Below the pieces are notes generated by a model that saw only the letters and a list, made by a program, of their open reading frames with translations, had not been told where the DNA came from and searched no databases. Shown here piece by piece: positions 1,950 through 56,068 of a DNA stretch of 64,000 nucleotides. Position numbers and translations under genes: made by a program. Position 1 is the stretch's first letter. Each line of letters opens with the position of its first letter. The stretch is from NCBI GenBank assembly GCA_951406725.2, contig OX597814.1, positions 129,518,001 to 129,582,000 on the forward strand. The letters are read 5' to 3'. Origin of the DNA: Octopus vulgaris. Its lineage: Eukaryota.

Positions 1950-4100
1950 TCATTTAATCCACTGTTGGTCACACCTTGTCCCCATCAACTTCCCACCTGG
2001 ATATAAGCAAAAGATATTTTCACTTACTCAGGCTTGGTCTTAATCCTCACTTCTCAAATACATCGGCTTGCCTCCAATATTAAACTGGAATTACTCTAAC
2101 CCCTAACAACTCAGTGATCATATGTTTGCTTGCATTGAGAACATCTATCTTAGATCATCCTACACAAGTCATTTTCTGTGCTTGGTTCTCACATTCACTT
2201 CATACATCAGTGCAGAAATTATATCATTTACAGTTACCAACACTTCGGCTAATTTTGTTCCTGACCAACATATAGATACTCTAAAGTCCTTTGATTCTTT
2301 TCTCACCTCCAAACTGAACATCAACCAGACCATAATTGTTTCTGTATCTATTGAATTGGCATGACTATTCATCACACATTGACATGTGACACAATGATCC
2401 CCTCCACCTCTCAGAAGCTATGGCATTTCAAGTCCCCTGACTTGCAAAGTTCCACCAGTTTTATATTATCCTTGGTAGCATATGTACTTCACTCCAATGC
2501 ATCAGAAAGCTTGGCAATGAATAAAACACATTTCTTAATCATATTCTTCCACATCTCACACACACCAAGAATTCAAATCCCAAGTACCCCCATGTGAATC
2601 ACTTATAGCTACACTGCCGTAGCTGAGGCGAAAAGCACAACCTACCACATATTATGAAAATCTTCCATTATAACAAACCAGACAGCTCTTACCCAGCACC
2701 ATAATTTCTGCAAGACCATTATCTGCATCACAAACGATGTAACTCTCTCTCTGTCTCTCTCTTCCTATACTGCAGTCAACACTTTTTTGGTCTTTTGCCA
2801 ATAAGATTTCTCCAACTTGGTAGAATTTTACTTTCCTTTGTTTCTCAAGCTTAACAGTTCTGTGAGCAATAACTTCTCAGAGAAAGCTTTCACATTTACT
2901 TCTTGCTTTTCATCTAGTTCCACAGTTCACAAATTAAATAAATCTCTTTCAAAGTTTTTCCTTTCCATTCCAGCAGATTTATCACCAAACACAAATATAT
3001 GCCAAGTAAGAAAGTGCCTCAAGTTACTTCAAACCTAAAGCTGCCAATCCTATGTCTCTCCCAATAACTTTAGACAATATGTCCCATCATCACCAGCCCT
3101 ATTGTCAACTACCCATTCATCAACTCATTCATTACAAGGATACATCCTGACCATTGGATACATGGCACAGTTTGTCCAATATCCAAGAAAGATAACCCCT
3201 TTGATGTTGCCAACAGCTGACCTACAGCAGTCATTTTACAAAAACCTCAAAATTATAGAACACTTCTACAACACCTTGAATTTTCTCTCACCTTAATGAC
3301 CACAAGTATGGCTTTCATAATGCCAGATCTGCTGGAGATTTACTCTCCATCAGCAGGCTCTCACTCTTGAGAAATTTGGAGAAAGTAGTATTGTTGATCT
3401 CAACATTAGTAGTGTTTGATGGTAAGTCTCCAGTCAAAACTGTTTGCCTATGGGTTCCTTCCATCTCTCATCTCTTGTATCAATAGTTTCCTGCCAGATC
3501 ATATTGCCAGGGAATGACACAGACACACATCCTGCTAACACTGGTGTGTTCCAGATTTCTATTTTTCTCTCTGCACTTTTATTCTAGTTCATCAATGGCC
3601 TACTTATTTCAACTCCATTAATTCCCATTCTAGCAAATATAAATCTACCTTTCATCCCTCCCTAACTAATCACACCCAAGTATTATCCATATGCAACTTA
3701 AATACTCTATACCAAATCTTCTCTGACTACTTGAACAAAGATCCCAAACATGTTCTCCAATGGGGGCCAGTCTTGTCTCTTCCAGTATATAGAGAACATT
3801 ACTCAAATTCTCAAAACCCTTGGGATCTCTTCAAATGCTCAGTCTCATTTGAACTAGGGATTTCTCTTGGCATGCACCCACAACTCCTAGCCCTTGACAA
3901 AGCCAAGTTGTGACTCACAATACAGTACTGCTTACACACTTGAGGTGGTGGTGTTGCTCTTTACATAGACATCTCAGAGTGCATCCAAAGACCATGCAAC
4001 ATGCAACACACCTCGTATATTGTGAAGAACAGACAGTTCTAGGATTACTGAAAGAGAATTTTACCAAACTGAACAATTTAATAACAATTATTGGATATTG
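1950..4100 (+). mobile_element. Highly degraded CR1/L2-clade LINE (RT remnants)
   Basis: Broken RT motifs: KKDNPFDVAN/RP-like at about 3180-3230, YGF..RSAGDLL at about 3305-3345, GVPQGS-like NTGVFQ..LF.FIN at about 3535-3600; many stops and frameshifts. Confidence 0.6.
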
Positions 4101-4664
4101 GCTCTTGCATGCTTATAGAACCATCACCATTTCTCAGCTGAAGAAACCAGAAATTCATGCCGCATGTTTGATCCTTACTATACTTCTAACATTGTTTTAT
4201 ATAGCCACATCTAAATTCTCTAATTTAGCTTTCATAAACCAGACTTTCAATATCAAATACTTTACAATCAATAGACTGGTGCTGATCTGCAGACATGTTG
4301 TCTCTTCTGCTACAGTGGTCTTTGCACTTCAGAGCTGATTGGTCTATTACCACATTCACTCAAGCACTCCTGATTCATTCATCTCTTTTCTATGTATTGC
4401 CCAGGCCCTGCATAAAACATTTTTCTCAGGTCTTTCTTCCTTCTCAAAACATTGGTCTTCTGGAATTCCTTCCATGCACATATTTTTTCTACAACTGTGG
4501 TCCTGTAAGTGTTGAAGTAGAATGTTAATGGTGTCAGTCTCACAAATTTCAAAGGGTCTGCATAGGCCATGTATAATTCCCTTTCTATAGTCCAAACTAA
4601 TAGAAAGAAAAACCAAACATTTTGTAATTCTTTCTTGTAATGTTATTTTTTTCCCAAATCCTTG

Positions 4665-5655: not shown

Positions 5656-6333
5656 CACAAAGCAGAGGAACCATGGTGTAACCTACTATAGTGTGGTAAA
5701 CTTTCAGACCCTAGTCTAGATTGCGAATCCTCTGTACCCCAGGATGGTTCAGCTCTCCACCCGTTAAAGGTCACCATTTACGGAATGAGGATGACAATGT
5801 AGCTCTCCCGCCCATGCAACTGCCAGTTTATCGCGTGTGGTGGGTGGATCTTCAAGTTGCCACACGCATTCTTAGTAGCTTAGAGCAGGCTCGAATTAGA
5901 GATTATTCTTTGTGGCTAATGGAGTGAGTCCTGATTGGAAGAAGAAGAAAAGGAAAGACATCAACAGCAGTAGAAAGGCAAACAAGAGCAATAGAAAAGA
6001 AGCAGCAGCAGCAGCAGCAATATCAGCATTTAAGGATATTGCTGGAGACTGATTTGATCTTGATTCATCAAAGTTCCTGAAAATGAAGTGAAATAGCAGG
6101 ATACATCACTAAGGACCATGTTGCACCACCAATGGAGTTTGTGGAAGGAAAACACAGAAGATCAGAAGACATATATTTGCTTCCCAAGAAACAAATATAA
6201 GATTTCAATTTCCTCACAAAGACAGATTTCTAAGAGTTCCTTTCCAATGTGTAGCTGGAGGTCTGTTATATTGAACGGGACCAGAGTATGGAACAGTAAA
6301 CCTGGTACTGAAAACAAAGGAGGAGCCAACATA

Positions 6334-6584
6334 TTGGGCTGGTGCATAATTATTGCGCCTTTTTTCCAACAAATTTTATTCAACAAAAACAATGACAACA
6401 TGTAACAAAAACATCTTTAAATGATTATTCCAAAGCATATTCACCATCTACTTCAATTACTGCTTCCCATTTGCTTGGCTGGTAGTCAGACCATCATTGA
6501 AAGACGTTTTTGTTAAATATTGTTATTGTTTTTGTTGAATAAAATTTGTTGAAAAAAAGCCGCAATAATTATGCACCAACCCAA
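6334..6584. mobile_element. Mariner MITE with about 90-bp TIRs (two 3' ends)
   Basis: TA-flanked ttgggctggtgcataattattgcg ... cgcaataattatgcaccaacccaa; internal minus-strand QPSKWEAVIEVDGEYALE* resembles a mariner C-terminus. Confidence 0.85.
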
Positions 6585-17286: not shown

Positions 17287-20200
17287 ATCATCATCATCAT
17301 TTAATGTCCGCTTTCCATGCTAGCATGGGTTGGACGGTTTGACTGGGGTCTGGGAAGCCATGGAGGCTGCACCAAACACCAGTCTGGCTTGGCAGTGCTT
17401 CTACAGCTGGATGCCCTTCCTAATACCAACCACTCCATGAGTGTAGTGGGTGCTTTTTACGTGCCACCAGACAAGGCTGGCAAATGGCCACGATAGGTTG
17501 GTGCTTTTATGTGTCACCGACACGGATGCCAGTCAGGCGGCACTGGCATCTGCCACGTTCGGACAGTGCTTTTAACGTGTCACCAGCACAGGTGTCTTAA
17601 CTACAATTCCCATTTGATTTTCATTTTGATGTTGGTGTTGACGTACTTAACTTAATAGGTCTTCTCGAGAACAGTGGGTCACTCTACGATCCATGTTTAG
17701 CACAGCAGGCCGTCCTGCAAGCTATGAACTCACTTCATTTGTCAGATCTTCACAGTCACAGCATATCTCAGGTATCTCGGTCTTCGTCATTTCCTCTGTG
17801 AGGCCTGACATGCCACCAGCACGGGTATCACAACTACAATATCCATACGATTTTTATTTTGATGTTGATGAACTTGACACAATAGGTCTCTTCAAGAGCA
17901 GCAGGCCGTCCTGCAAGCTATGAACTCACTTCATATGTCGGGTCTTCGAAGTCACAGCATATCCCCAGAGGTCTTGGTCTTTCGTCATAGCCTCTATGAG
18001 GCTCAACGTACGAAGGTCATGCTTGACCACCTCGTCCCATGGGTCTACCTCTACCCCAGATTCCTTCAACAGTTTGGGAGTGTCACTTCTTCACACATCT
18101 CTCCTCATCCATCCATAGTACATGACAATACCAATGCAATCATCTCTCTTGCATGCTGCATTCGATGCTTCTAATGCCCAACATTTCTCTCAGGGCGCTT
18201 ACACTCTGTCGTGCATGGACACTGACATTACACATCCAGCGGATCATGCTAGCTTCATTTCTTTCGTGCCTACGCATGTCCGCCACAGTCACAGCCTATG
18301 TTTCACTGCCGTGAAGCATGGCAGTTCGCACACATGCGTCGTACAATCTACCTTTCACTCTGAGCGAGAGACCCTTTGTCGCCAGTAGGGGAAGAAGCTT
18401 CCTAAACTTTGACATGGTTATTCTTATTATAGTGGTAACGCTCTCTGAGCATCCACCCCTGCTACTAACTTGGTCACCTAGGTAGCAGAAACTATCAACT
18501 ACTTCTAGTTTCTCCCCCAGGAGTGTAATGGAATCTGTTTTCTGAGTATCAATGGTGTCTATTGTCCCTGTGCATCTGTTGCACATGAAAGCTATCTTCT
18601 TGGTTAATTTTCCTTTGATATTGCTACACCTCTTATGTGTCCATAGCTTACACTGGGTACATGTTATGGAGTTTCTACCTACACCTTTTCTACAGATCGA
18701 GCCAGGCCACCTACCTGAAGGTGTGTGTGGTGAGTTTGCCTTCCTACTTACTAGAACTTTGGACTTTGCTACATTGACTCTAAGGCCTTTTGATTCTAAA
18801 CCACACACGAAATTTCTTCTCTAGTTCCGGTAGTGATTCTGCTATGAGGGCTAAGTCATCAGCATAGAGGAGCTCCCAGGGACAACTCATCTTAAATTCC
18901 TCTGTTATTGCCTGGAGGACTATGATGAATAGAATGGGACTGAGGGCTGAGCCTTGGTGGACGCCAACTTCTACCCAGAATTCTTTACTGTACTTATTGC
19001 CAATTCTAACCTTACTAACAGCCTCTCTGTAAAGGGCCTGTACAGCCCTTATTAACCATTCGTCAATCTCCAGTTTCCACATCGCCCACCAGATAAGGGA
19101 TCGGGGGACCCTGTCAAAGGCTTTCTCCAAGTCCACAAAAGCTAAGTATAGGGGTTTATCTTTGGCTAGGTATTTCTCCTGTAGTTGTCGAACCATGAAT
19201 ATGGCATCAGTGGTACTTCTACCCGGCACAAAACCGAACTGCATCTCATCTAAGCAAACTCTCTCCCTGATGAGATGGGCTATGACCCTCTCCGTGACCT
19301 TCATTACCTGATCCAGCAGTTTGATATCCCTGTAGTTATTTCTATCTAGAGCATCACCTTTACCCTTGTAGCAGTTGACTATTGTGCTGCTATGCCAGTC
19401 ATTGGGTATGACTCCATCATGAACTACCTGGTTTACAATGCGGGTGACTAGGCCATAGCCCACACCAGATGTTTTAAGCATCTCGGCAGTGATTCCTGAT
19501 GGGCCAGGGACTTTTCCTGACTACATACCCTTAATTGCCTTAACTACTAGGGAGCTATCTATACGGATAGCTGGTCCTTCTAGATCAACGTTTGGCAGGC
19601 TCTCCTCCTCCCATTCATTCTCCACATTCAGCAGTCTTTCATAGTGGCTTCTCCAAGCCTCTTTCTTTTCAGAATCACTAAAAGCAAGTGCACCATCATC
19701 CATTCGAACACATTTCTCTCCTGTGACATCACAATTTTCTCTCACACACTGCCTTGCAATCCAAAATACCTCAGTTCTTTGGTCCTCACATCTCTGGACA
19801 TTGGCAAACTTCTTCTTTTCTGCTTCGCTCTTGGCTATGTATACCTGCCACCCAGCCTCCCTTCTGGCTACTTGGTACTGTTCCCTGCTACCCCCATCCT
19901 TCCAGGCTTTCCAGGCCTGTTTCTTTGCTCTAACGGCTTTGTCTACCGTACTATTCCACCACCACGTAACTCTAGGTCTGGAAGGGACTTTGCACCAGCC
20001 ACAGACTTGGTCTGTGGCACTCAGTAAGCTGTCCCATAGGAATTTCCAGCTACCTTCTATGTCTGATGTCTGTAGCTCCTCCTCCCTCTCCTCAAATTTC
20101 TTGATGAGGATGTCCCTAAATCTCAGATCATGTGAAGGGTTCTTTAGCCTCCAAATCCTTCTTTTTTGGATTGGTTTGCGTCTTGGTATCCTTCTGGTCT

Positions 20201-21400
20201 CGAGACTAAAGTCACTAATAACTAGCCTGTGCTGGGGAGGGAGGTACATTCTTCACCCAGGAGGGTCTTTGTATTTAAGAGTAACCCTGCATCCCGCTGT
20301 CTGGTGAGGATGAAATCAATCTGGCTAGCGGAGTCCCCCGATTGATAGGTTATAAGGTGGCTGTCTGGCTTCCTGAAGTTAGTGTTGCAGATTAAAAGGT
20401 TACATGCATCACAGAACTCCAGTAGCCTGGTTCCCTCATCATTTCGGGTGCCAATTCCATGGCCACCGTGTACCTCAGTGAAGATACCTGCTTCCCGCCC
20501 GACATTCCCATTAAAGTTTCCAGCCACAAAGACGAGGTCATTGCCACTCGTCTTTGAAGTAGCCTGTAGAAGGGTGTCATAAAAGTGGTCCTTCTGATCA
20601 TTTGGTAGCCCCGCATGTGGGGTGTAGGCAGAGATGATAGTAGCTGTGCTATTCTGCAGGACTAGTCTAAGCTTAAGTACTCTATCACATACCCTAACAA
20701 CCTCTATAACCTTATCCACCCACTTCTCTGAGAGGAGAATGCCTACACCCTCTATACCATCCATGTTACCTTGCCAGAAGAATTTGTACCTATGTGCTTA
20801 GCCTGTGAAGCTCCTCTCCATCTTACCTCTTGTATGCAGCATACATCAACCCGTCTCCTTTCAAGCATCTGTACAATCTCACTAGACCTACCTTTCATTG
20901 TGCCAACATTGACAGTGCTAACTCTGAAAACTGTGGGGTGGGGTGAGGTTTGGGTGGGAGGGATGTTATTCAGCACCTGAAAAGAAAAAGGTTGTTGTGG
21001 TGGTGTTCGTTTGTTTGGCATGCTTCATCCTTTCTTTTTCTTTTCTTCCTCTCTTCCAACCTGACAACATTCAAGCATGTTAAGGATGTTGGCCCTACCG
21101 GAGGTAGAAGCTGGTGTTAGTAGCATTGTAAGCATAAGCATTATGGTCATGAATGATGCAGATTCAAGCAGGGTAGCAAATTGGAAAATATGGATACTCC
21201 AATGTTAGGTTACAAGGGTGTCAGCTGAAACGGTTGCATTGCCTGGGCAGAGGGGGATTGCAGGGATAAAGAAGGGTACCACCAACGAGGAGGGTTCAGA
21301 CAGATGGAGGAAACAAGCGCATTCCTATATATACACAAGCACACCCACACTCAGAAATAGGTACACACGGGCAGCCGAACAGCTTTCTGGTTCACTTCAC
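17287..21400 (-). mobile_element. Near-full-length RTE-clade LINE, disrupted by frameshifts and stops; 5' boundary approximate
   Basis: APE endonuclease (STVNVGTM..CIQEVRW, SAYTP, AGNFNG, QIDFIL; 21021-20222), RT (YKGKGD, FVDLEKAFDRVPR, GVHQGSALSP, LLYADDL; 19481-18780), PHD-like finger and FCYLGD..MLHGSET (18808-18296), long 3' UTR and (GAT)n tail. Confidence 0.95.
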
Positions 21401-35305: not shown

Positions 35306-35857
35306 CAGGGATTGGACAAAATAATGGAAACACCTAGCATCATAGCACCATAATTTTGAAATACCTATAAAACTGTCAAAAGTTTGTTTATTTTTATGTT
35401 TTTTGATTTATTATTAGTGTTGCTTAATATGTTTTGCTAAAATTACTGTTTCTTTTCAGATATCATCAGAAAAAGATAATTAAAATTCATTAAAATGACA
35501 GATCTATCGGACTTTCAAAGAGGTCAAATTGTTGGTGCTCATATGGCAGGCACTAGCATAATGAAAACAGCTAAAGTGTTTGCTGTTTCAAGAAGTACTG
35601 TCTTGAAAGTAATGACAACCTTTGAGAAAGAGGGAAAAACCTCCTTGTCGAAACAAAACCCTGGAAGAAAACCAAAACTTTAAGAGACTGTCGGACTCTT
35701 ATGTGCATTGTTAGAAAGGATCACAAAAGTACAGCTCCCAAAATTACTGCAGAGCTTAATGACCACTTCGAGAACCCAGTTTTCACAAAAACTGTTTGTC
35801 GGAAGCTGCACAAAGCCGGATTTCACAGGAGAGCCGCAATCATAAAACCACTACTAT
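35306..35857 (+). mobile_element. Tc1-family transposon 5' half (truncated)
   Basis: TA-cagggattggacaaaataatggaaacacc TIR; MTDLSDFQRGQIVG..VSRSTV..GRKPKL and ITAELN..TVCRKLHKAGF..KPLL HTH domains. Confidence 0.88.
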
Positions 35858-36137
35858 CAGTATCTTTTGCTGAACCGCTAAGTTACGGGGATGTAAACAC
35901 ACCAGCATCGATTGTCAAGAGATGTTGGGTGGGGGGACAAAGACAGGCACACAAACATATACACACACATATACATATATACGACGGGCTTCTTTCAGTT
36001 TCCATCTACCAAATCCACTCACAAGGCTTTGGTCGGCCTAAGGCTATAGTAGAAGACACTTGCCCAAGGTGCTATGCAGTGGGACTGAACCAGGAACAAT
36101 GTGGTTGGTAAGAAAGCTACTTACCACACAGCCACTC
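35858..36137 (-). mobile_element. Microsatellite-containing SINE (family of 15988), 3'-truncated
   Basis: Reverse-complement match; abuts the Tc1 fragment. Confidence 0.8.
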
Positions 36138-38036: not shown

Positions 38037-38418
38037 TTGGGTCATCCCATAAATAATGTATTTTTTTTCAATTGCATGAACTAAAAGTTGGAGGGGACGG
38101 GATAAACTACCTCCAACAACTTGCTATAAAAACAGGTTGTAATTTTACTTTGTACTTATTCTTAGTGCAAGTTCTGAAGAGTGCAGTTCAATTTTAACAG
38201 TTATTTTTTTAAAGTTATAAAGGAAGTGACAAAGGAGCATATTCAGCATATTTTGCTTTATGAGTTCAATAAAGGCAACAATACAATAGAAAGTGCGAGC
38301 AATATTAATGCAGTATATGGGGATTGGACAATAAACATAAGCCAGTGTCAACGATGGTTCCAGAAATTCCGAACCAGAAACTACAGCCTGCTAACCCTGG
38401 TGGAATATAATCCCATTG
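38037..38418 (+). mobile_element. Mariner 5' fragment (family of 45758-47026)
   Basis: TA-ttgggtcatcccataaataatg TIR; EVTKEHIQHILLYEFNKG..QCQRWFQKFR. Confidence 0.88.
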
Positions 38419-38599
38419 GTCCTGGAATATTTGTAGAATTTGACAAAACATCAATCACTTTACAGAGTGTACTGGCTACTTTTCATGTGGCACCAGAACC
38501 AGTGCTTTTTACATGGAACCAGTGCTTTTTATGTGGTACCAACACCAGCATAGTCACTAAGTAGTATGTTAACATTGGCTTAGCTTTGTTACAGCTTAC

Positions 38600-41909: not shown

Positions 41910-42270
41910 CTCTCTTACTTGTTTCAGTCATTTGACTGCCGCCATGCCTTTAGTCGAGCAAATCGACCCCAGAACTTATTCTTTGTAAGCCTAGTACTTA
42001 TTCTAATGGTCTGTTTTGCTGAACCGCTAAGCTACGGGGATGTAAACACACCAGCATCGGTTGTCAAGCAATGTTGGAGGGGACAAACACAGACAGACAA
42101 ACATATACATATATATGACTGGATTCTTTCAGTTTCCATCTACCAAATCCACTCACAAGGCTTTGGTCAGCCTGAGGCTATAGTAGAAGATACTTGCCCA
42201 AGGTGCCATGCAGTGGGACTGAACCTGAAACCATGGGGTTTGTAAGCAAGCTACTTACCACACAGCCACC
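41910..42270 (-). mobile_element. Microsatellite-containing SINE (family of 15988)
   Basis: Reverse-complement match; inverted relative to the 41125 copy about 380 bp away. Confidence 0.85.
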
Positions 42271-42276
42271 CTACGC

Positions 42277-42317
<41 letters not shown>

Positions 42318-42361
42318 AGAGAGAGAGAGAGAGAGATAGTGCTACACACAGCCACCTTAGC

Positions 42362-42445
<84 letters not shown>

Positions 42446-42710
42446 TAGGCGTAGGGTGGCTGTGTGGTAAGTAGCTTTTTTATATATTTTTAAAATTTTT
42501 ACTCTTTTGAAATTTTTGCTCTTTTACTACCTTTTGCACCCACCACCCTCCCTCTTTGTGATCCCCAACTCACTAAAGATTCAACCCCACCAACCCATTT
42601 CCCTCTCTATCTCAACATCCAAACTTCCTCATTCTACATCGAGTGAAAGACGAGATGGACGCTTCATTTTTGTGCTGGTGCCCCACTCTGTCGTACGCGA
42701 CTGTGAAGAT

Positions 42711-43052
42711 TTCCACTGTAACTAGGTAAATAAAATCTTCGAACAGATGGTCAGTAGTGACACTTGCTGGTTCTGACTACACTGCATTGATAAAGGGCAA
42801 CAACCCTGAAACATGTCTGCAGATGTCTGACTAGCAAGGTGAAGCGGCTGACCTCCCCTGTTCGAAGGTTGCAATGGACGCAGGTTCGTGTGTCATATAG
42901 CTAGCTAGAGGCGGTGGCCTCTTGGAGCTAATCAGCAACAGCTTTAGTCTTATATTTAGACTGCCATATTAGTATGGCGATAACTATTAATATCCAGTAA
43001 TGCTGCCATAATCTCCTTTAGAGAGACTTAGTAATTTTAATATTTCTATTAT
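42711..43052 (+). mobile_element. Hammerhead-containing non-coding repeat, family A (copy 1)
   Basis: Colinear with 51403-51690 followed by the continuation seen at about 51325-51384; ends in (AT)n. Confidence 0.8.
42782..42822 (+). ncRNA. Minimal type I hammerhead ribozyme, U3-A8 core variant
   Basis: ctgca TTGATAA aggg caacaa ccct GAAA catg TC tgcag: 5-bp stem I, 4-bp stem II, palindromic acatgt stem III, GTC site ending 42817. Confidence 0.8.
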
Positions 43053-43218: not shown

Positions 43219-43792
43219 TAAAAACATGATGCCAAGGATTCAGCGGCACATATGTTTCGGGCCTTTATTAGACGGATTTATATATTTACTTATTTATTTA
43301 TATATTTATATACTTAGATACTCTTTTTATATTCTTATATGTTTTTTTATATTCTTATATTTTTTTTATATTCTTATATTTTTTTATATTCTTATATCTT
43401 TTTTATATATTTTTTTAAATTTTACTCTTTTGAAATTTTTGCTCTTTTACTATCTTTTGCACCCACCACCCTCCCTCTTTGTGATCCCCAATTCACTAAA
43501 GATTCAACCCAACCAACCCCTTCCCTCTCTATCTCAACATCCAAACTTCCCCATTCTACATCGAGTGAAAGACGAGATGGACGTTTCGTTTTTGTGCTGG
43601 TGCCCCACTCTGTCGTACGCGACTGTGAGGATTTGCATCCCCAACGTAAAACTTATAATGTAATACATGTCCTTGAAGTAGTAATTGTACGCGGCTGAAG
43701 AAGGCCATAGACACACATTATGCATTGTTATAAATCCGTCTAATAAAGGCCCGAAACATATGTACCGCTGAATCCTTGGCATCATGTTTTTA
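43219..43792 (+). mobile_element. Hammerhead-containing Penelope-like element, family B, with inverted terminal copy
   Basis: 43219-43282 is the reverse complement of 43729-43792; 43405-43635 duplicates 42480-42712; (TA)n nearby on both sides. Confidence 0.75.
43691..43768 (+). ncRNA. Type I hammerhead ribozyme motif with extended stem II
   Basis: gcgg CTGAAGA a ggcc a tagac...gtcta ataaa ggcc c GAAA catatg TA ccgc: 4-bp stem I, palindromic acatatgt stem III, GTA site ending 43764. Confidence 0.75.
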
Positions 43793-45757: not shown

Positions 45758-47026
45758 ATTGGTCATCCCATAAATAATGCGATTTTTAAAATTCTTCTTT
45801 TATTTTTCAGAATTAAGATAAACAAGGCCCTCTTTTAATCTAAAATATACTCTCCTTCATTTTCCACAATGCTCTTCCATCTATCTGGTAGACTTGCAAG
45901 ATCTCTCTACTAAAATTCACTTGCCCATGACAAAAAATACTCCTCCAGTATTGTTCTGATCTTGTCTACAGAATTCATATATTTTCGTCGAAATGATTTT
46001 GAAGACAGTGAAATAGATGATAATCAGATGGGGCAATGTCCGGCAAATATGGTGGGTGGGACATCGTTTCTCATTCAAGATGCTCCAGCCTTTGGAATGT
46101 CATCCTTGCTGTATGTGGTCAAGCATTAACCTGATGGAAGAACATTTTTCATCTTGAAACCTAAGATGGTAATTTTTCTTCTAGTGCTGACTGAAGTCAC
46201 TCAAGCTGCTCACAGTAGATCTCTTTTGTTATCATTTGATTTGGGTTTAAAAGTTCAAAGGGGACTAAATCTTCCATATACCACCAAACAGATAACAACC
46301 TCCTTTAGCCTGGGGTGCTGGTATTTCTCCTTTCCCTACCCACTGTATTTGGTGCTTGACATTTTATAGAGAACCCATTTCTTGTCACCAGTCACTATTC
46401 AGTCCAAAAAAGGTTTATTTGTGAAACATGACAGCAAAGAAGAGCACACATTCACTCTCTGCATGCAATTAGACTTGGAATATTTGTGAAGAATCCATTG
46501 ATTCAATTTGCTGAATTCTCTCATGGCACGCAGGTGTCGATGGATGGTTGAATTAGCAATCCCAAGCTTCTCTGCTAGTTCTTCAACAGTTATGATGGGA
46601 TTATATTCCACCAGAGTTAGCAGGATGTCTTCATCAAACACTAGAGATCTTCTAGGACCAGGCTTGTCTTCTAGGCTGTAGTTTCCAGCTCAGAATTTCT
46701 GGAACCATCATTGATACTGTCCTACGCTTATTGTCCAATCCCCATATACTGAATTAATATTCCTCACACTTACCATTGCATTGTTACCTTTATTGAATTC
46801 ATGAAACAAAAGCATACTGAATATGCTCCTTTGTCACTTCCATTATAACTTTGGGAACACAACAGTCAAAATCGAACTGCCCTCTTCAAAACTTGCACTA
46901 AGAATAAGTACAAGATAAAATTACTACCTGCTTTTATTGCAAATTAATGCAGGTAGTTTATCCTGTCTCCCTCTCACTTTTAGTTCATTCAATTGAAAAA
47001 AGTGCATTATTTATGGGATGACCCAA
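45758..47026 (-). mobile_element. Full-length (about 1.27 kb) degenerate mariner
   Basis: TIRs ttggtcatcccataaataatgc / gcattatttatgggatgacccaa-TA; MEVTKEHIQY start near 46843, TVEELAEKLG..WILHK, GDKKWVL, HPPYLPDIAPSDYHLF with multiple lesions. Confidence 0.92.
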
Positions 47027-47761: not shown

Positions 47762-47905
47762 TCATCGTTAAATGCACAGTCTGCTACCCATTCAGTATGT
47801 CCTTCACCGGTCACTATCAATTCACCTGCTGGCATTGACCATAATTTCCAGGTCTTATCATCACTGGCTGTAGCGAGGAGCTTCGACTTTGGTTGGAGAC
47901 ACACA
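47762..47905 (-). CDS. SPAG16: SPAG16 coding exon (WD40)
   Basis: ctgtAG/GTaagt; VCLQPKSKLLATASDDKTWKLWSMPAGELIVTGEGHTEWVADCAFND; 144 nt, phases fit both neighbours. Confidence 0.95.
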
Positions 47906-48089
47906 CTACAGAGGAGGAATGGAATGAAACAGAAAGGTTTAGAGAAAAATAACCTCAAGCACAAATATGTGGAAGACAGGTTCACTATCTAGGTTTGGAC
48001 CCACAGTGTGGCGTCTTGGGTAAATTGTGAGTTGAACAATACTTTATGGGGTGAAAATATCATAGAGAAAAACTATGTGGAAGCACATT

Positions 48090-48730
48090 GTGTGTGTGTA
48101 TTTGGGTGAATGCGTGTGTGTGTATGTGTGTCTGTGTATTTGGGTGCATGTGTGTACATGTAGGTAAGTGTGCATATGTGTGTGTGTGTGTGATTGTGTG
48201 TGTGTGTTTGAATGTGTATATCTGTGTGTGTGTATTTGGGTGCATGTGTGTACATGTAGGTATGTGTGCATATGTGTGTGTGTGTGCATGTGTGTGTATG
48301 TGTTTGAATGTGTATATCTGTGTATGTGTGTGTGTGTATTTGGGTGCATGTGTGTACATGTAGGTATGTGTGCATATGTGTGTGTGCATGTGTGTGTATG
48401 TGTTTGAATGTGTATATCTGTGTATGTGTGTGTGTATTTGGGTACATGTGTATGCATGTGAGTATGCGTGCATATGTGTGCATGTGTATGTATGTGTTTG
48501 AATGTGTATATCTGTGTATGTGTGTATGTGTATTTGAGTGCATGTGTGTGCATGTGGGTATGTGTGCGTGTGTGTATGTGTGTGTATGTGTTTCAATGTA
48601 TATATCTGTGTGTGTTTGTGTGTATTTGGGTGCATGTTTGTACATGTGGGTGTGTATGCATATGTGTGTGTGTGTGCATGTGTGTGTGTATGTGTGAGCA
48701 TGTGTGCATGTGTGTGTGTGTGTGTGTGTG
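48090..48730. repeat. TG-rich minisatellite with a unit of about 95-105 bp
   Basis: tgtatttgggtgcatgtgtgtacatgtagg...tttgaatgtgtatatctgtg recurs at about 48135, 48231, 48335, 48433, 48528 and 48621. Confidence 0.85.
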
Positions 48731-49359
48731 AAGAGGAGCTTTTCAGTTACAATTTATTAAAGTATATTCTTTTGAATTGAGTCCTGTAATTTATTGTTCC
48801 TGGTCCGTCAACAGAGATACAGGTATACATTTAAATGTATGGTGATATATTATATTGGCTTCCGTGCCGGTGGCATGTAAAAGGCACCCACAACACTCAC
48901 GGAGTGGTTGGTATTAGGAAGGGCATCCAGTTGTAGAAACACTGCCAGATAAGACAGGAGCCTGGTGCAGCCTCCTAGCTTCCCAGATCAAGGTTGAACC
49001 GTCCAACCCATGCTAGCATGGAAAACGGACATTAAACGATGATGATGATGATGATGATATATATATATATATTTGTATGCTCTTGATGTTCTCATTTGTA
49101 AAATGAATAAATAATATAGCATTATAATATCCGTAAGTTGATGAACAAACTGAATTTGTTACGGTAAAGATATTTCTTTACCTTCACCCATTTAATACAA
49201 TAAATGAATTAATTGCATTGCTATTAAAAACATTTGTGTATAAAAGAATCTGGGTACTTTACCAACAGTATATTGGATAATTGATATCCCATAGTGAGTT
49301 ACATCCATAACCCCTATCTTACTTTGTACTATATATATATATATATATAAGTATATATA

Positions 49360-50998
49360 CAGGGTGTCCCAGAAGTCGTGCACCATTCTGGCTTTCATTT
49401 AAAATGATTAAAGCATTTTATTTTATTATATTTTTTTCCGCATGTTTTATTGTAGAGGGTGCTCAATTTGAGCATTTGTTAAGGTTAATTTCAATAATAT
49501 GTTTTTGAAATCAGAAGGGGTGTATTCTTTTAAAAAACTAGGGTGACAGATGGTTATGTGTTTTATAATTTTTATAAGTTGCCAGATCTTTCATCTACAA
49601 AGTTTATAAGGAACTAGAGATTGAAGATGGAAATGAATCACCAGTATCAAAGCATAAAAAGCATTCTAAACACTCTGAAAGCATCAGAATGCCTGAATTT
49701 ATCCAGCAAGTTCAACAGACCATTGATTACAATCTCAGAAGGAACAGTTAGAAATGTTGTCCACGAAAACATCAGATATGTCTTTTATGATGAGGAAAGT
49801 TCAATTTGTGAGAAAAAGCAAAAGAAAATCACTACACCAGATCTGATGGAAGCACTCCGTCGGTTACGACGATGAGGGTTCCGGTTGATCCGATCAACGG
49901 AACAGCCTGCTCGTGAAATTAACGTGTAAGTGGCTGAGCATTCCACAGACACGTGTACCCTTAACGTAGTTCTTAGGGATATTCAGCGTGACACAGAGAG
50001 TGACAAGGCCAGCCCTTTGAAATACAGGTACAACAGAAACAGGAAGTAAGAGTGAGAGAAAGTTGTGGTGAAAGAGTACAGCAGGGATCACCACCATCCC
50101 TGCCGGAGCCTCATGGAGCTTTAGGTGTTTTCGCTCAATAAACACTCACAACGCCCGGTCTGGGAATCGAAACTACGATCCTACGACCGTGAGTCCGCTG
50201 CCCTAACCACTGGGCCATTGCGCCTCCACCAGATCTAAAAGGCTCTTAAACTGAAAATTCCAGCAGAAGTAGATATGAGTTGGTTTTTCTCAAACGAGAA
50301 AAACTTCGACCAAGCTCAAAAAGTTAACAGAAGAAATGACAGATGGTTATGTGCAGACCCTTCTGAAGTTCCAAGTGTTATGCATACAAAATTTCTGCAA
50401 CTGTCATGGTTTTAGGGGTTGTAAGCAATGAAGGACATGTGATGCCTCCTTACTTCTTTCCACAAGGCCTTAGAGTTAATTCTGCCACCTACATTGAGGT
50501 CCTGAAAATAATTGTTAAGCCCTGGATAGACAGTGTATGCAATAGAAGGCCATATGTGTTTACGTAAGACTCTACACTATCACACATGGCTCTTGTAACA
50601 CAGGAATGGATGGTTGAAAATTTTCATGATCACATAATCCCTAACATTTGACCTCCCAATTCCCCAGATCTCAATCCATAGGACTGTTACATGTGGAGCA
50701 TTGTTGAGAGGGAGGTCAATGAACATGCCCATAACACCAAAGATTCTTTGAAAGCTGCCATAGTCAGAGTAATGTCCAAAATGAACCAGGAGCACTTGAT
50801 TCAAGTATGTAGTTGATTTAGTTCTCATATAGAAGCAGTTGTTGAAGCTATAGGTGGCTTTATTGAATGACATTATAAAAAAGAAGGTTTGCCTTTATTC
50901 TCATAGCATTTCTTGATAAATAAAGTTATTATCTGTTATTATATATCTATTTTTTTTTGATAAATATAAATCTGTCATCAAATATCTTACACACCCTG
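49360..50998 (+). mobile_element. Degenerate maT (DD37D) transposon interrupted by a SINE
   Basis: TA-cagggtgt...acaccctg-TA ends; FFSNEKNF, VMVLGVVS, and *DSTLSH...PPNSPDLNP*D with 37 residues between the second and third Asp. Confidence 0.88.
49845..50227 (-). mobile_element. Full-length tRNA-derived SINE nested in the maT element
   Basis: Minus-strand head ggaggcgcaatggcccagtggttagggcagcggactc; TSD accagatct at 49836-49844 and 50228-50236. Confidence 0.92.
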
Positions 50999-51011
50999 TA
51001 TATATATATGA

Positions 51012-51061
<50 letters not shown>

Positions 51062-51067
<6 letters not shown>

Positions 51068-51690
51068 GAAATATTAAAATTACTAAGTCTCTCTAAAGGA
51101 GATTACGGCAGCGTTACTGGAAATTAATAGTTATCGCCATACTTATATGGCAGTCTTATAAATATAAGACTAAAGCTGTCGCTGATTAGTTCCAAGAGGC
51201 CACCGCCTCAAGCTAGCTATTTGACACACAACCTGCGTCCATTATAAACATTGGAGCTAATCAGCGACAGATTTAGTCTTATATTTATAAGACTGCCATA
51301 TAAGTATGGCGATAACTATTAATTTCCAGTAACACTGCCGTAATCTCCTTTAGAGAGACTTAGTAATTTTAATATTTCTATTATTGAAAACAAGTGGATG
51401 TATTCCACTGAAACTAGGTAAATAGATTCTTTGAACAGGGACAGTCAGTAGCGACACCTGCTGGGTCTGACTACGCTGCATTGATAAAGGGCAAATACCC
51501 TGAAACATGTCTGCAGCTGTCTGACTGGCAGGATGAAGCGGCTGACCTCCCCTGTTCGATGGTTTATAATGAACGCAGGTTGTGTGTCAAATAGCTAGCT
51601 TGAGGCGGTGGCCTCTTGGAGCTAATCAGCGACAGCTTTAGTCTTATATTTATAAGACTGCCATATAAGTATGGCGATAACTATTAATAT
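51062..51690 (+). mobile_element. Hammerhead-containing non-coding repeat, family A (copy 2): inverted 5' segment plus 1.2 tandem units in (AT)n
   Basis: ttggagctaatcagcgacag at 51251 and 51616 (365-bp period); 51062-51250 is an inverted copy of the unit's 3' portion. Confidence 0.85.
51475..51517 (+). ncRNA. Minimal type I hammerhead ribozyme, U3-A8 core variant (second copy)
   Basis: gctgca TTGATAA aggg caaata ccct GAAA catg TC tgcagc: 6-bp stem I, GTC site ending 51511; differs from the 42782 copy mainly in loop II. Confidence 0.82.
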
Positions 51691-52287
51691 ATATATATAT
51701 ATATATAGTATTACCACACATATATATGTACAGCTGAATCTCTGTTGATTCACCAGAAACAATAAATTATATATGTATGTATACATATACATATATGTGT
51801 GTGTGTGTGTGTGTGCGTGTGTATGTATACATATGTATATATATATGTGTGTGTATGTATGAATGTTTGTATGTATTTACATACATGTATATATGGTGGT
51901 AATGATAAAGACGATGATGGGATTAATAATGATGATGATGGTGATGATGATGATGATGGGGGTGATGATGATGATGACGACGATGACGATGATGGTGATG
52001 ATGACGAGGAGGATGATGATGGTAATGATGATGATGATGATGATGATGATGATGGTGATGATGATAATGTCGATGGTGATGATGACAATGATTTACTGAC
52101 AGCTTTTGTGACACTGGAGAGAAAGTTGATTAGTATCCAACAGTGATGAGATAACACCTTCGTCTCTTTGGTCTTTGTCTGAAGCACAGACAGACAAACA
52201 GGTGTCTTCACTTACTTCTGTCTATGCAACCAACGGAACACCATTTCTCAATCGATGACAAAAATCAATAAGATACTGTTAACAAAC

Positions 52288-52424
52288 CTGCTTATAGCAT
52301 CTTTATGTCCAATATAGGTTTTGGTCAGTTTGAAACCACCGGCTCGGATAGGGTAGCTGCTCAGTGTCTTATTCATTAGCAAAAGTGGGTTTATCCTTCT
52401 GTCCGATGGAAATTTGGAGTCCTT
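52288..52424 (-). CDS. SPAG16: SPAG16 coding exon
   Basis: gtttacAG/GTttg; KDSKFPSDRRINPLLLMNKTLSSYPIRAGGFKLTKTYIGHKDAIS(S), matching the SPAG16 KDSEFP..NP motif before WD repeat 1; 137 nt, phase 2 out. Confidence 0.92.
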
Positions 52425-54640: not shown

Positions 54641-56068
54641 TAATAATAATAATAATAATAATTGTGTACAGTGCTCAGGTGCACTACAACTCATCTAAAG
54701 TGTATATATAATCAGGTGTAGTTTCGGCGGATTTCGGAAAGCATGAGGGCCTTAAAGGATGCAGTGTCATGGCAGTCAACAACTGACGCAGGCAGTTTAT
54801 TCCATGCTTCAGCAACTCTGAGCGTGAAAAAATGTTTCCGAAAGTCATGGGAGCTGTGTTGTTTTCTGACTTTGTAGGCATGTCCACGTGTGTTAGATAC
54901 ATGGAGATCAAAAAGGTGTTCAGTGTTGTTGTCGGTGAGGTGGTTGATAACTTTGTGGGTGTTCACCAAGTCCGTCGCCAGACGCCGGAGCTTCAGTGAA
55001 TCCATGCCCAGGGAAACAAGGTGCTCAGAATATGGTAGGTGTCTGATGGAGGGTATGCGTTTGGTTGCACGTCTCTGGACAGATTCCAGGAGGTCAATGT
55101 TCTGAGCAAGATAGGGGTTCCAAACTGATGATGCGAATTCCAAGTGTGGTCGTACCATAGCTGTATACAGTTTTAAATAGATGGCTGGAGAGCGGCTAAC
55201 AAAAGTCTTGCTGAGTGATGCCAAGACACCCTCGGCCTTCTTGACAATTTTAGAGATATGCTTTATCCAACGCAAATCACTGCTGACAGTGATGCCTAGG
55301 TCACGCTCGCAAGAGGATTTCTTGATATCAGTGTTGTGGAGGGAGTATGTGGACGCAGGGTTTTTTCTCCCAAAATGCATGGTGGTACACTTGTCCACAG
55401 CCAGTTTCAGTTGCCAGTCTGTGATCCATTGCTGCATTGTGTCTAGGTCTGATTGCAGGAAAGAGTTGTAGACATCAAGATCTGTCCTCTTGATTTCAAG
55501 GTACAGCTTGATGTCGTCTGCATATTTCAATACTGTGGCATTCTTTAAATTGGCATCTATGTCATTAATGTATGCCACAAACAAGAGGGGACCAAGGACA
55601 GATCCCTGTGGTACACCCGATGACATCTCATATGGTGTAGAATGCTGTCCTAGAACTGTGACTACTTCCTTTCGGCTGAGAATGAAGGATTTCAACCAGT
55701 TAAAAAGATCATCCCTCACACCCATTGCAGAGAGTTTCACCATAAGCCTTTTGTGTGGCACAGAGTTGAAAGCCTTAGCAAAGTCAAGGTAGACAACATC
55801 CACCCATGAGCCACTGTCAGTGATCTGAGTAATGTCCTCAAGGAACTCGACAAGCATAAGTGGCTGTTTTCCTGGCAGCAGCTCGGAGGATATCGCAAAG
55901 CTGTGTGTCTTGATGGTAATTTGGGGGACGATAAACAACACCAAGCAGGAGTGTTGACATGGTCATACATACGTCACAGAAAAAAACTTCTTCTTGTGAT
56001 TTGTTCAAATCGGCACAAGGAATTACCGAAAAATTTGAACGAACGTAGACCATCATCCTTTTACTCAA
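54641..56068 (-). mobile_element. CR1-clade LINE with internal deletion (endonuclease stub joined to RT) and (TTA)n tail
   Basis: ORF 54712-55944: YLDFAKAF, SGVPQGSVLGPLLF, YADD, ERDLG, VRPHLE, VQRRATK, TRGH; 55838-56068 VYVR..LGVVYRPP is endonuclease N-terminal sequence. Confidence 0.92.

Follow-up and report, generated by a model that had tools for sequence, protein, structure and literature searches.

What kind of element lies within a (TA)n microsatellite of an Octopus vulgaris intron, devoid of any sizeable reading frame but carrying the motif of a hammerhead ribozyme? The window – by which we mean the whole stretch of 64,000 nucleotides that was analysed – had received a first-pass annotation that saw there a structured, circularly permuted unit of some 365 nt, a candidate retrozyme copied from tandem or circular RNA. 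The view that we favour, and hold to be probable, is that this 365-nt ORF-less repeat is a non-LTR retrozyme, likely copied in trans by a Penelope-like reverse transcriptase (RT) and endonuclease. Elements of this kind are already known, and we see no sign that the unit serves its host.

Anatomy of the insertion and of its unit

The element is a 627-nt insertion inside (TA)n, made of an inverted piece of 188 nt, a single nucleotide and a forward piece of 438 nt (Table 1). A 20-mer found at 51251 recurs exactly at 51616, with a period of 365; one-mismatch matches are present at 42922 on the forward strand and at 51176 on the reverse strand. Shuffling (100 shuffles) leads to an expectation of 0 such matches, and the 365-bp period proposed in the first-pass annotation holds. 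TRF reported the flanking (TA)n alone and did not call this period. Because the direct overlap is just 73 nt long (51251-51323 against 51616-51688, 72/73 identical), the forward piece has to be counted as 1.2 units with one hammerhead. With one ribozyme only, the locus is unable to release a monomer by itself. Two consecutive units with complete ribozymes were not found at 51062-51688, nor was a dimer or multimer with two intact ribozymes found in the 64-kb window, and no listed contig is long enough to span a unit. The 1.2 units, inversion and lone ribozyme of this locus set it apart from the 'active' retrozymes of a recent preprint, which are defined by two consecutive complete ribozymes, lone copies being treated as solo monomers of the family (Li, Clavereau and Pollet, 2026 preprint, 10.64898/2026.07.22.740005).

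The inverted piece is the reverse complement of the unit from position 51562 to an 'attat' end (184/188 identical). This inverted 5' segment and the (AT)n target, the latter recovered by TRF, had both been correctly recognised beforehand. The forward piece is longer than one unit and runs across an intact cleavage site, and it cannot therefore be a single-pass copy of a cleaved linear monomer: the template must have been circular or a multimer left uncut, unless the copying enzyme jumped between templates. The circle model predicts cDNA longer than the unit (PMC7761336).

Table 1. Features of the insertion, of the second copy and of the host gene, with window positions.
Feature	Position	Strand	Evidence or remark
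SPAG16-like host gene, about 11 exons	28124-57514	-	tblastn, Octopus SPAG16 proteins
Older second copy, 0.94 unit, 90% identical, loop II CAACAA, outer helix I pair A.A	42711..43052	+	Sequence comparison
Host intron with the insertion; ribozyme antisense to pre-mRNA	47914..52289	-	Exons 52430-52290 and 47913-47770, tblastn
Left (TA)n target microsatellite	50999..51064	.	TRF period 2, 33 copies; junction ...ATAT/ATAATAGAAAT
Inverted 5' piece, 188 nt of unit, without ribozyme	51062..51249	-	184/188 identity to unit read across its junction
Single nucleotide at inversion junction, fitting neither neighbouring template position	51250..51250	.	Sequence
Forward piece, 438 nt, 1.2 units of the 365-nt ORF-less unit, across intact cleavage site	51251..51688	+	Sequence comparison
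73-nt terminal redundancy, first copy	51251..51323	+	72/73 identical to 51616-51688
Preferred 3' insertion boundary ...TCTATTAT	51371..51384	+	Copy 2 and inverted piece; (AT)n loose ends in contigs
18-nt linker	51385..51402	+	Depth like neighbours; bridged by diverged contigs; pair probabilities 0.85-1.0
Intron-like signals round ribozyme (AG/GTAAAT donor, CTGAC and pyrimidines, CAG); weak lead	51416..51578	+	Pattern
Long interrupted stem with hammerhead at tip, predicted	51430..51560	+	MFE and centroid folds
Type I hammerhead	51471..51521	+	Strict descriptor, folding, loop comparison
73-nt terminal redundancy, second copy, ends ACTATTAAT then (AT)n	51616..51688	+	Sequence
Right (AT)n target microsatellite	51687..51707	.	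TRF

The unit is 365 nt long, with 41.6% GC. Read in tandem, its longest ATG-started frames have 21 aa on the sense strand and 52 aa on the antisense strand, in agreement with the earlier statement that it lacks an ORF, and no RT/GIY-YIG ORF was found in or beside either copy. It falls within the size and GC criterion for retrozymes (about 150-400 nt, non-coding, GC under 45-50%). Compared with shuffled versions its fold has a z of -6.0 as a linear molecule and -6.2 as a circle, and that of the second copy a z of -5.7. Two of 28 control windows score below the unit (z -11.0 and -8.1), both of them palindromic repeats. At a z of about -6 the description of the unit as structured is borne out, though the antisense strand folds equally well (z -7.0), so that the fold by itself cannot tell which strand is functional. 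The 18-nt linker is predicted to pair with 51404-51409 (probabilities 0.85-1.0). As for the long predicted stem that would carry the hammerhead at its tip, its basal helix (51433-40 with 51550-57) has pair probabilities of 0.94-1.0, and pairing is extended by the majority letters found at 51432 and 51560 in other copies, in the contigs. A tRNA module was also considered; there is none in the window.

The second copy, read against the unit from 51403 through the junction, matches it at 312 of 348 positions (90%), which upholds the earlier view that the 18-nt linker 51385-51402 leads into 51403. It had also been said that the two copies differ in loop II and not in their stems. This has to be withdrawn: the outer pair of helix I, G-C in the unit, is A.A in copy 2, and the distal stem is altered as well.

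The hammerhead motif

The motif comprises a helix I of 6 bp (51475-80 with 51512-17) next to internal-loop nucleotides C51474 and U51518, a core U3-U4-G5-A6-U7-A8-A9 at 51481-87, a helix II of 4 bp (51488-91 with 51498-501) with the loop CAAAUA, then GAAA at 51502-05. Helix III is the palindrome ACAUGU (51505-10). C17 is at 51511, and cleavage is predicted after C51511. The core TTGATAA is found in both copies (51481 and 42787), as first reported. A strict type I descriptor gives three matches in the window – both copies and a separate motif at 43695 – versus one in 30 block-shuffled windows together. In context, helices I and II have pair probabilities of 0.85-1.0, and helix III within one molecule has a probability of 0.0. 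The helices III of two copies can pair, with a computed energy of -4.6 kcal/mol. Activity is predicted for the dimer because this helix pairs between two copies, not within one molecule.

Canonical metazoan type I hammerheads, which are those used by retrozymes, have a helix I of 6 bp, a helix II of 4 bp and a short palindromic helix III (Cervera and de la Pena, 2014, PMC4209133). To judge by its letters, the octopus motif is of this canonical type and not of the minimal Penelope form. The latter has a helix I of 4-5 bp and a long helix II with a 5' bulge; the octopus helices I and II have 6 and 4 bp, there is no bulged base, and the nucleotides of a loop-loop contact are present. The closest comparison that we made is with the hammerhead of Schistosoma mansoni, which shares with it loop 2, CAAAUA, and an internal loop 1 with a 5' U and a terminal UAC (PMC2632901). 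The Schistosoma contacts involve internal-loop U1 and C8, and U51518 and C51474 stand in those places in the octopus (PMC2632901). Unlike its Schistosoma mansoni counterpart, the octopus motif has U-A as its 3-8 pair, a helix II that opens with A-U, and a helix III which is a 6-nt palindrome of intramolecular probability 0.0.

The U3-A8 pair, which the first-pass annotation took to be a tolerated swap, does occur in nature and is stated to be active in vitro (PMC3088659); it is present in about 1,300 Schistosoma hammerheads linked to Penelope (PMC4209133). The core pair of the octopus unit is therefore uncommon but already known. In this pair, and in a palindromic helix III implying dimer activity, the motif is like the hammerheads of EN+ Penelope elements (Schistosoma; PMC4209133). 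Helix II opens with A10.1-U11.1, at a place where G-C is highly conserved (PMC4209133). As a consequence of this A-U pair in the unit and of the A.A mismatch in helix I of copy 2, the activity of the ribozyme may be low. Rfam gave no hammerhead match at gathering, nor at E<=10, and its miRNA and snoRNA matches are spurious, lying on AT repeats. Pattern scans gave 0 matches in viral contigs, metagenome contigs and prokaryote genomes. What the octopus unit suggests is that searches demanding C3-G8 miss whole high-copy families.

The family in public contigs and the ends of its copies

One unit (51275-51639) was aligned to the contigs of four public runs, X1, X3, X10 and X19. Of these, X10 and X19 are merely guessed to be RNA, and contigs show no ends, strand or level. 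The stretch is present in 20 of the 24 runs listed, under 4 organism labels and in 9 studies; none of the runs that contain it is listed as RNA. Aligned contigs number 3173, 2488, 176 and 48 in the four runs, the two largest figures coming from two DNA runs, and many of them are less than 95% alike. Summed depth in X1, which is not a copy number, is 1.48 million at 51366-78, 1.11 million at 51379-91 and 1.03 million at 51392-404; it remains at about 1.0-1.5 million over 51353-51404, versus 25-70 for single long contigs. The repeat family is large, abundant and diverged, and it is met under several organism labels. Dips in depth at 51418-51482 and 51561-51586 were considered as boundaries and rejected, the loose ends there being diverged versions of the unit.

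Does the linker belong to the unit? Four of the eight X1 pieces listed, which each show 16-23 differences, bridge position 51384/85 with at least 31 letters to its left and to its right, and 51402/03 is bridged by record 5 of X1 and record 19 of X19. A joint that goes back by 365 nt is present in 4/4 runs. Since the linker is bridged in diverged copies, and since this joint recurs, we count the linker as part of the unit, which thereby forms a closed cycle of 365 nt. The contigs thus support the cyclic part of the earlier proposal of a permuted, retrozyme-like unit; the two copies of the window alone are no proof of permutation, for the 'attat' 3' end recurs in copy 2, in the inverted piece and in many other copies, and the 5' end of copy 2 at 51403 is met again in another contig.

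This closure bears on the possibility that the unit is the pseudo-LTR (pLTR) of a longer coding Penelope element, its copies being 5'-truncated fragments. The anatomy of the insertion is that of Penelope, U3-A8 is known from Penelope-linked hammerheads, Xenopus retrozymes are homologous to pLTRs (10.64898/2026.07.22.740005), and 31 Penelope-like families have been active recently in Octopus vulgaris (PMC13282606). We nevertheless consider it improbable: in each of the four runs the graph of contigs returns to its start after 365 nt, the unit has no ORF, and its ribozyme is canonical and not minimal. Of the 388 loose ends, the 24 listed consist of (AT)n, of flanks that are unique or of diverged unit versions, with no shared coding continuation evident among them. 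The first-pass annotation had itself raised the case of fixed-end copies of a coding element and, as far as short contigs tell from these 24 ends, the copies are not of that kind.

Variation within the family reflects on the ribozyme. Among 40 of the 85 variant rows, those that were listed, none falls in the core 51481-87; in helix I, a U-A pair would result from 51475 G>T and 51517 C>A if these are in phase, and 51514 C>T makes G.U. In loop II the variant CAACAA, which is also the loop of copy 2, accounts for about a third of the depth in X1 and X3, and keeps the first C and the last A. Helix variants, as far as these letters indicate, mostly preserve pairing. A ribozyme-dead repeat that spreads as DNA, whether as a satellite or by template-switch repair in microsatellites, and in which the hammerhead would be a relic, is hard to reconcile with a core which, among the variant rows listed, is invariant while its neighbours vary. 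Such a repeat would fit the two departures from the consensus (U3-A8 and A10.1-U11.1), the absence of an Rfam match and an antisense strand that folds like the sense strand, but in U3-A8 the two changes compensate each other, and activity in vitro is stated for this pair (PMC3088659); moreover, dispersed copies with an inversion and more than unit length fit reverse transcription. We hold this explanation to be most improbable.

Two observations may be added on the diversity of the family. In a diverged subfamily the first hairpin is swapped for a GTCC...GGAC version, an apparent compensatory change, and in one X19 contig helix III is two bases shorter, with a shorter palindrome left.

Counted from the cleavage site, the segment ends in the window lie at 50, 104, 176, 237, 237 and 256; none is at the cleavage site. 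Permutation is biased, because three of the four segment 3' ends in the window are the same 'attat' site. In the contigs, (AT)n loose ends behind 51384 occur in X3 (16 contigs) and X10 (2 contigs), while other 3' ends are 51688 in the window and 51318, 51322 and 51381 in X19. The 3' ends come after CTATTA-type stretches and lead into (AT)n, 51384 being the commonest, and priming by microhomology on (TA)n is likely at the 51371-51384 boundary. Copy 2 likewise ends at 'attat', leading into (AT)n, and its 5' end is joined to a piece of another hammerhead repeat. A 2-kb contig (record 7 of X1) shares with copy 2 its point of entry into the unit, 51401-51403; record 27 of X3 is probably the same locus. 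This 5' end at 51401-51403 may be an RT stop at the linker hairpin or the true 5' end of an RNA.

The piece that adjoins the 5' end of copy 2 is a 244-nt fragment of the second hammerhead repeat of the window, at 42472-42715, 94% identical to 43395-43637. The fusion sits at a short common 'GATTT' stretch, and could record template switching between two families.

Recurring ends – 51384 on the 3' side and about 51403 on the 5' side – are what one would expect of a non-autonomous Penelope derivative that moves as a linear RNA, read through or multimeric, and favours certain ends. The ribozyme would trim this RNA or rarely cut it, and tandems would arise by template jumps with no circle involved. 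An intact cleavage site fits an uncleaved RNA as well as a religated circle, and partial tandems and inversions are known in Penelope clades without hammerheads (PMC8557442). The intron-like signals round the ribozyme resemble, besides, the 5'-UTR introns of pLTRs. This pattern, fitted after the fact, was matched in 27 of 2000 shuffles, and no spliced joint for the stretch appears among the 13 joints listed, which come from contigs of runs merely guessed to be RNA. Against a purely linear route stand also the linker, which stays constant as copies diverge and whose predicted pairing spans the junction, the further 3' ends (51688 in the window; 51318, 51322 and 51381 in X19), and a ribozyme with the loop-loop architecture of circle-forming retrozymes. 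We see such a derivative as rather unlikely.

Proposed mobilisation, relatives and neighbours

As a non-LTR retrozyme, the element would multiply in the following way. The source would be a locus of at least two units, from which RNA is transcribed. Two hammerheads, in which U3-A8 would maintain the 3-8 pair of the core, would pair via their palindromic helix III and cut after GUC, giving 365-nt monomers that would be ligated to circles, as in other animal retrozymes. A Penelope endonuclease would then nick (TA)n, and the 3' end of the target would prime at UAUUA-type stretches of the RNA, chiefly at two sites. Copying would run on past the intact cleavage site, beyond the length of one unit, and the inverted piece would stem from a further priming event on the opposite flank; for these last two steps the DNA structure is what we observe. 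The 51062-51688 copy, with its single ribozyme in antisense orientation to the host gene and within one of its introns, is most likely a descendant that is itself passive.

An inverted 5' copy, a partial tandem and a (TA)n bias are hallmarks of Penelope (Craig et al., 2021, PMC8557442), and it is these that the octopus insertion, like the pLTRs of EN+ Penelope elements, displays. They speak for the Penelope-type copying initially put forward. The octopus unit differs from EN+ Penelope elements in that no RT/GIY-YIG ORF is attached to it, and the window itself is of no help: filtering left 161 frames of at least 70 aa, and among the 150 of them that were covered no Penelope ORF was found. For this reason a Penelope driver can only be inferred.

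Mussel (Mytilus) retrozymes are 350-390-bp repeats with less than 45% GC, expressed as circles, for which Penelope is the proposed driver (Cervera and de la Pena, 2020, PMC7229834). According to the 2026 preprint, animal retrozymes derive from pLTRs and have many solo copies, and 1 of 9 Xenopus retrozyme dimers was cleaved in vitro (10.64898/2026.07.22.740005); a Penelope origin of animal retrozymes is thus already in print. The octopus unit is like metazoan non-LTR retrozymes in being ORF-less, about 365 nt long and below 45% GC, with one canonical type I hammerhead, strong self-pairing, a head-to-tail junction common to many copies, many solo copies and a proposed Penelope link. It is unlike them in its U3-A8 core with A10.1-U11.1, and in its cephalopod host.

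A literature search, which covered few subscription papers, yielded no description of a cephalopod retrozyme family, and the words 'ribozyme' and 'retrozyme' are absent from the main text of the paper reporting the Penelope-like families of Octopus vulgaris (PMC13282606). With the octopus family, cephalopods would join the animals known to have retrozymes. That Penelope mobilises animal retrozymes has so far been put forward because the two co-occur and because retrozymes are homologous to pLTRs; a 2020 review states that retrozyme repeats show no motif revealing their driver (PMC7761336). Dispersed copies longer than the unit, with 5' inversion and (TA)n priming, would be countable footprints of Penelope mobilisation in chromosome-level octopus assemblies. 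A bolder picture can be drawn, which we offer tentatively and with some doubt: an abundant octopus retrozyme family, whose family-wide U3-A8/A10.1-U11.1 core would be invisible to CUGANGA descriptors and to Rfam, would be expressed as a 365-nt circle and twin-primed into (TA)n by the Penelope machinery, fusions of the copy 2 type then reflecting template switching between retrozyme and driver.

We must add a few words on the surroundings of the element. The host gene is recognised, among others, by a WD40 exon at 47770-47913 (minus strand), 45 residues of which show 98% identity with SPAG16-like proteins from both Octopus sinensis and O. vulgaris. All three hammerheads of the window are intronic and antisense to this gene. 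One of them belongs to another hammerhead repeat, at 43222-43790, which is of the minimal Penelope type, is not related to the 365-nt unit and is absent from the first-pass annotation. Its motif, at 43695, has the core CUGAAGA, a 4-bp helix I, a long helix/loop II, a palindromic helix III ACAUAUGU and a GUA site; the repeat has an inverted copy of its 3' end at about 43222-43282, and (AT)n at its end. The frame upstream in this repeat has no Pfam match and no homologue among 45 candidates, which is weak evidence.

Directly to the left of the target microsatellite, at 50400-51000, lies a broken transposase remnant with PPNSPDLNP in its translation, which we take to be Tc1/mariner-like. Remnants of a transposase HTH are found at 35626-36108, 38178-38561 and 46402-46689. 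Long palindromes occupy about 6330-6580 and 42248-42477, where the fold windows from 6301 and 42001 have z of -11.0 and -8.1; the palindrome at 42248-42477 is an inverted SINE-like end round microsatellites. LINE-type reverse transcriptase remnants are present at 18299-20797 (minus) and 54715-55962 (minus). Neither adjoins the element, and one of the two has endonuclease and PHD-finger matches. Finally, an exon matching JAMP (PF05571) is located at 3898-4335 on the plus strand.
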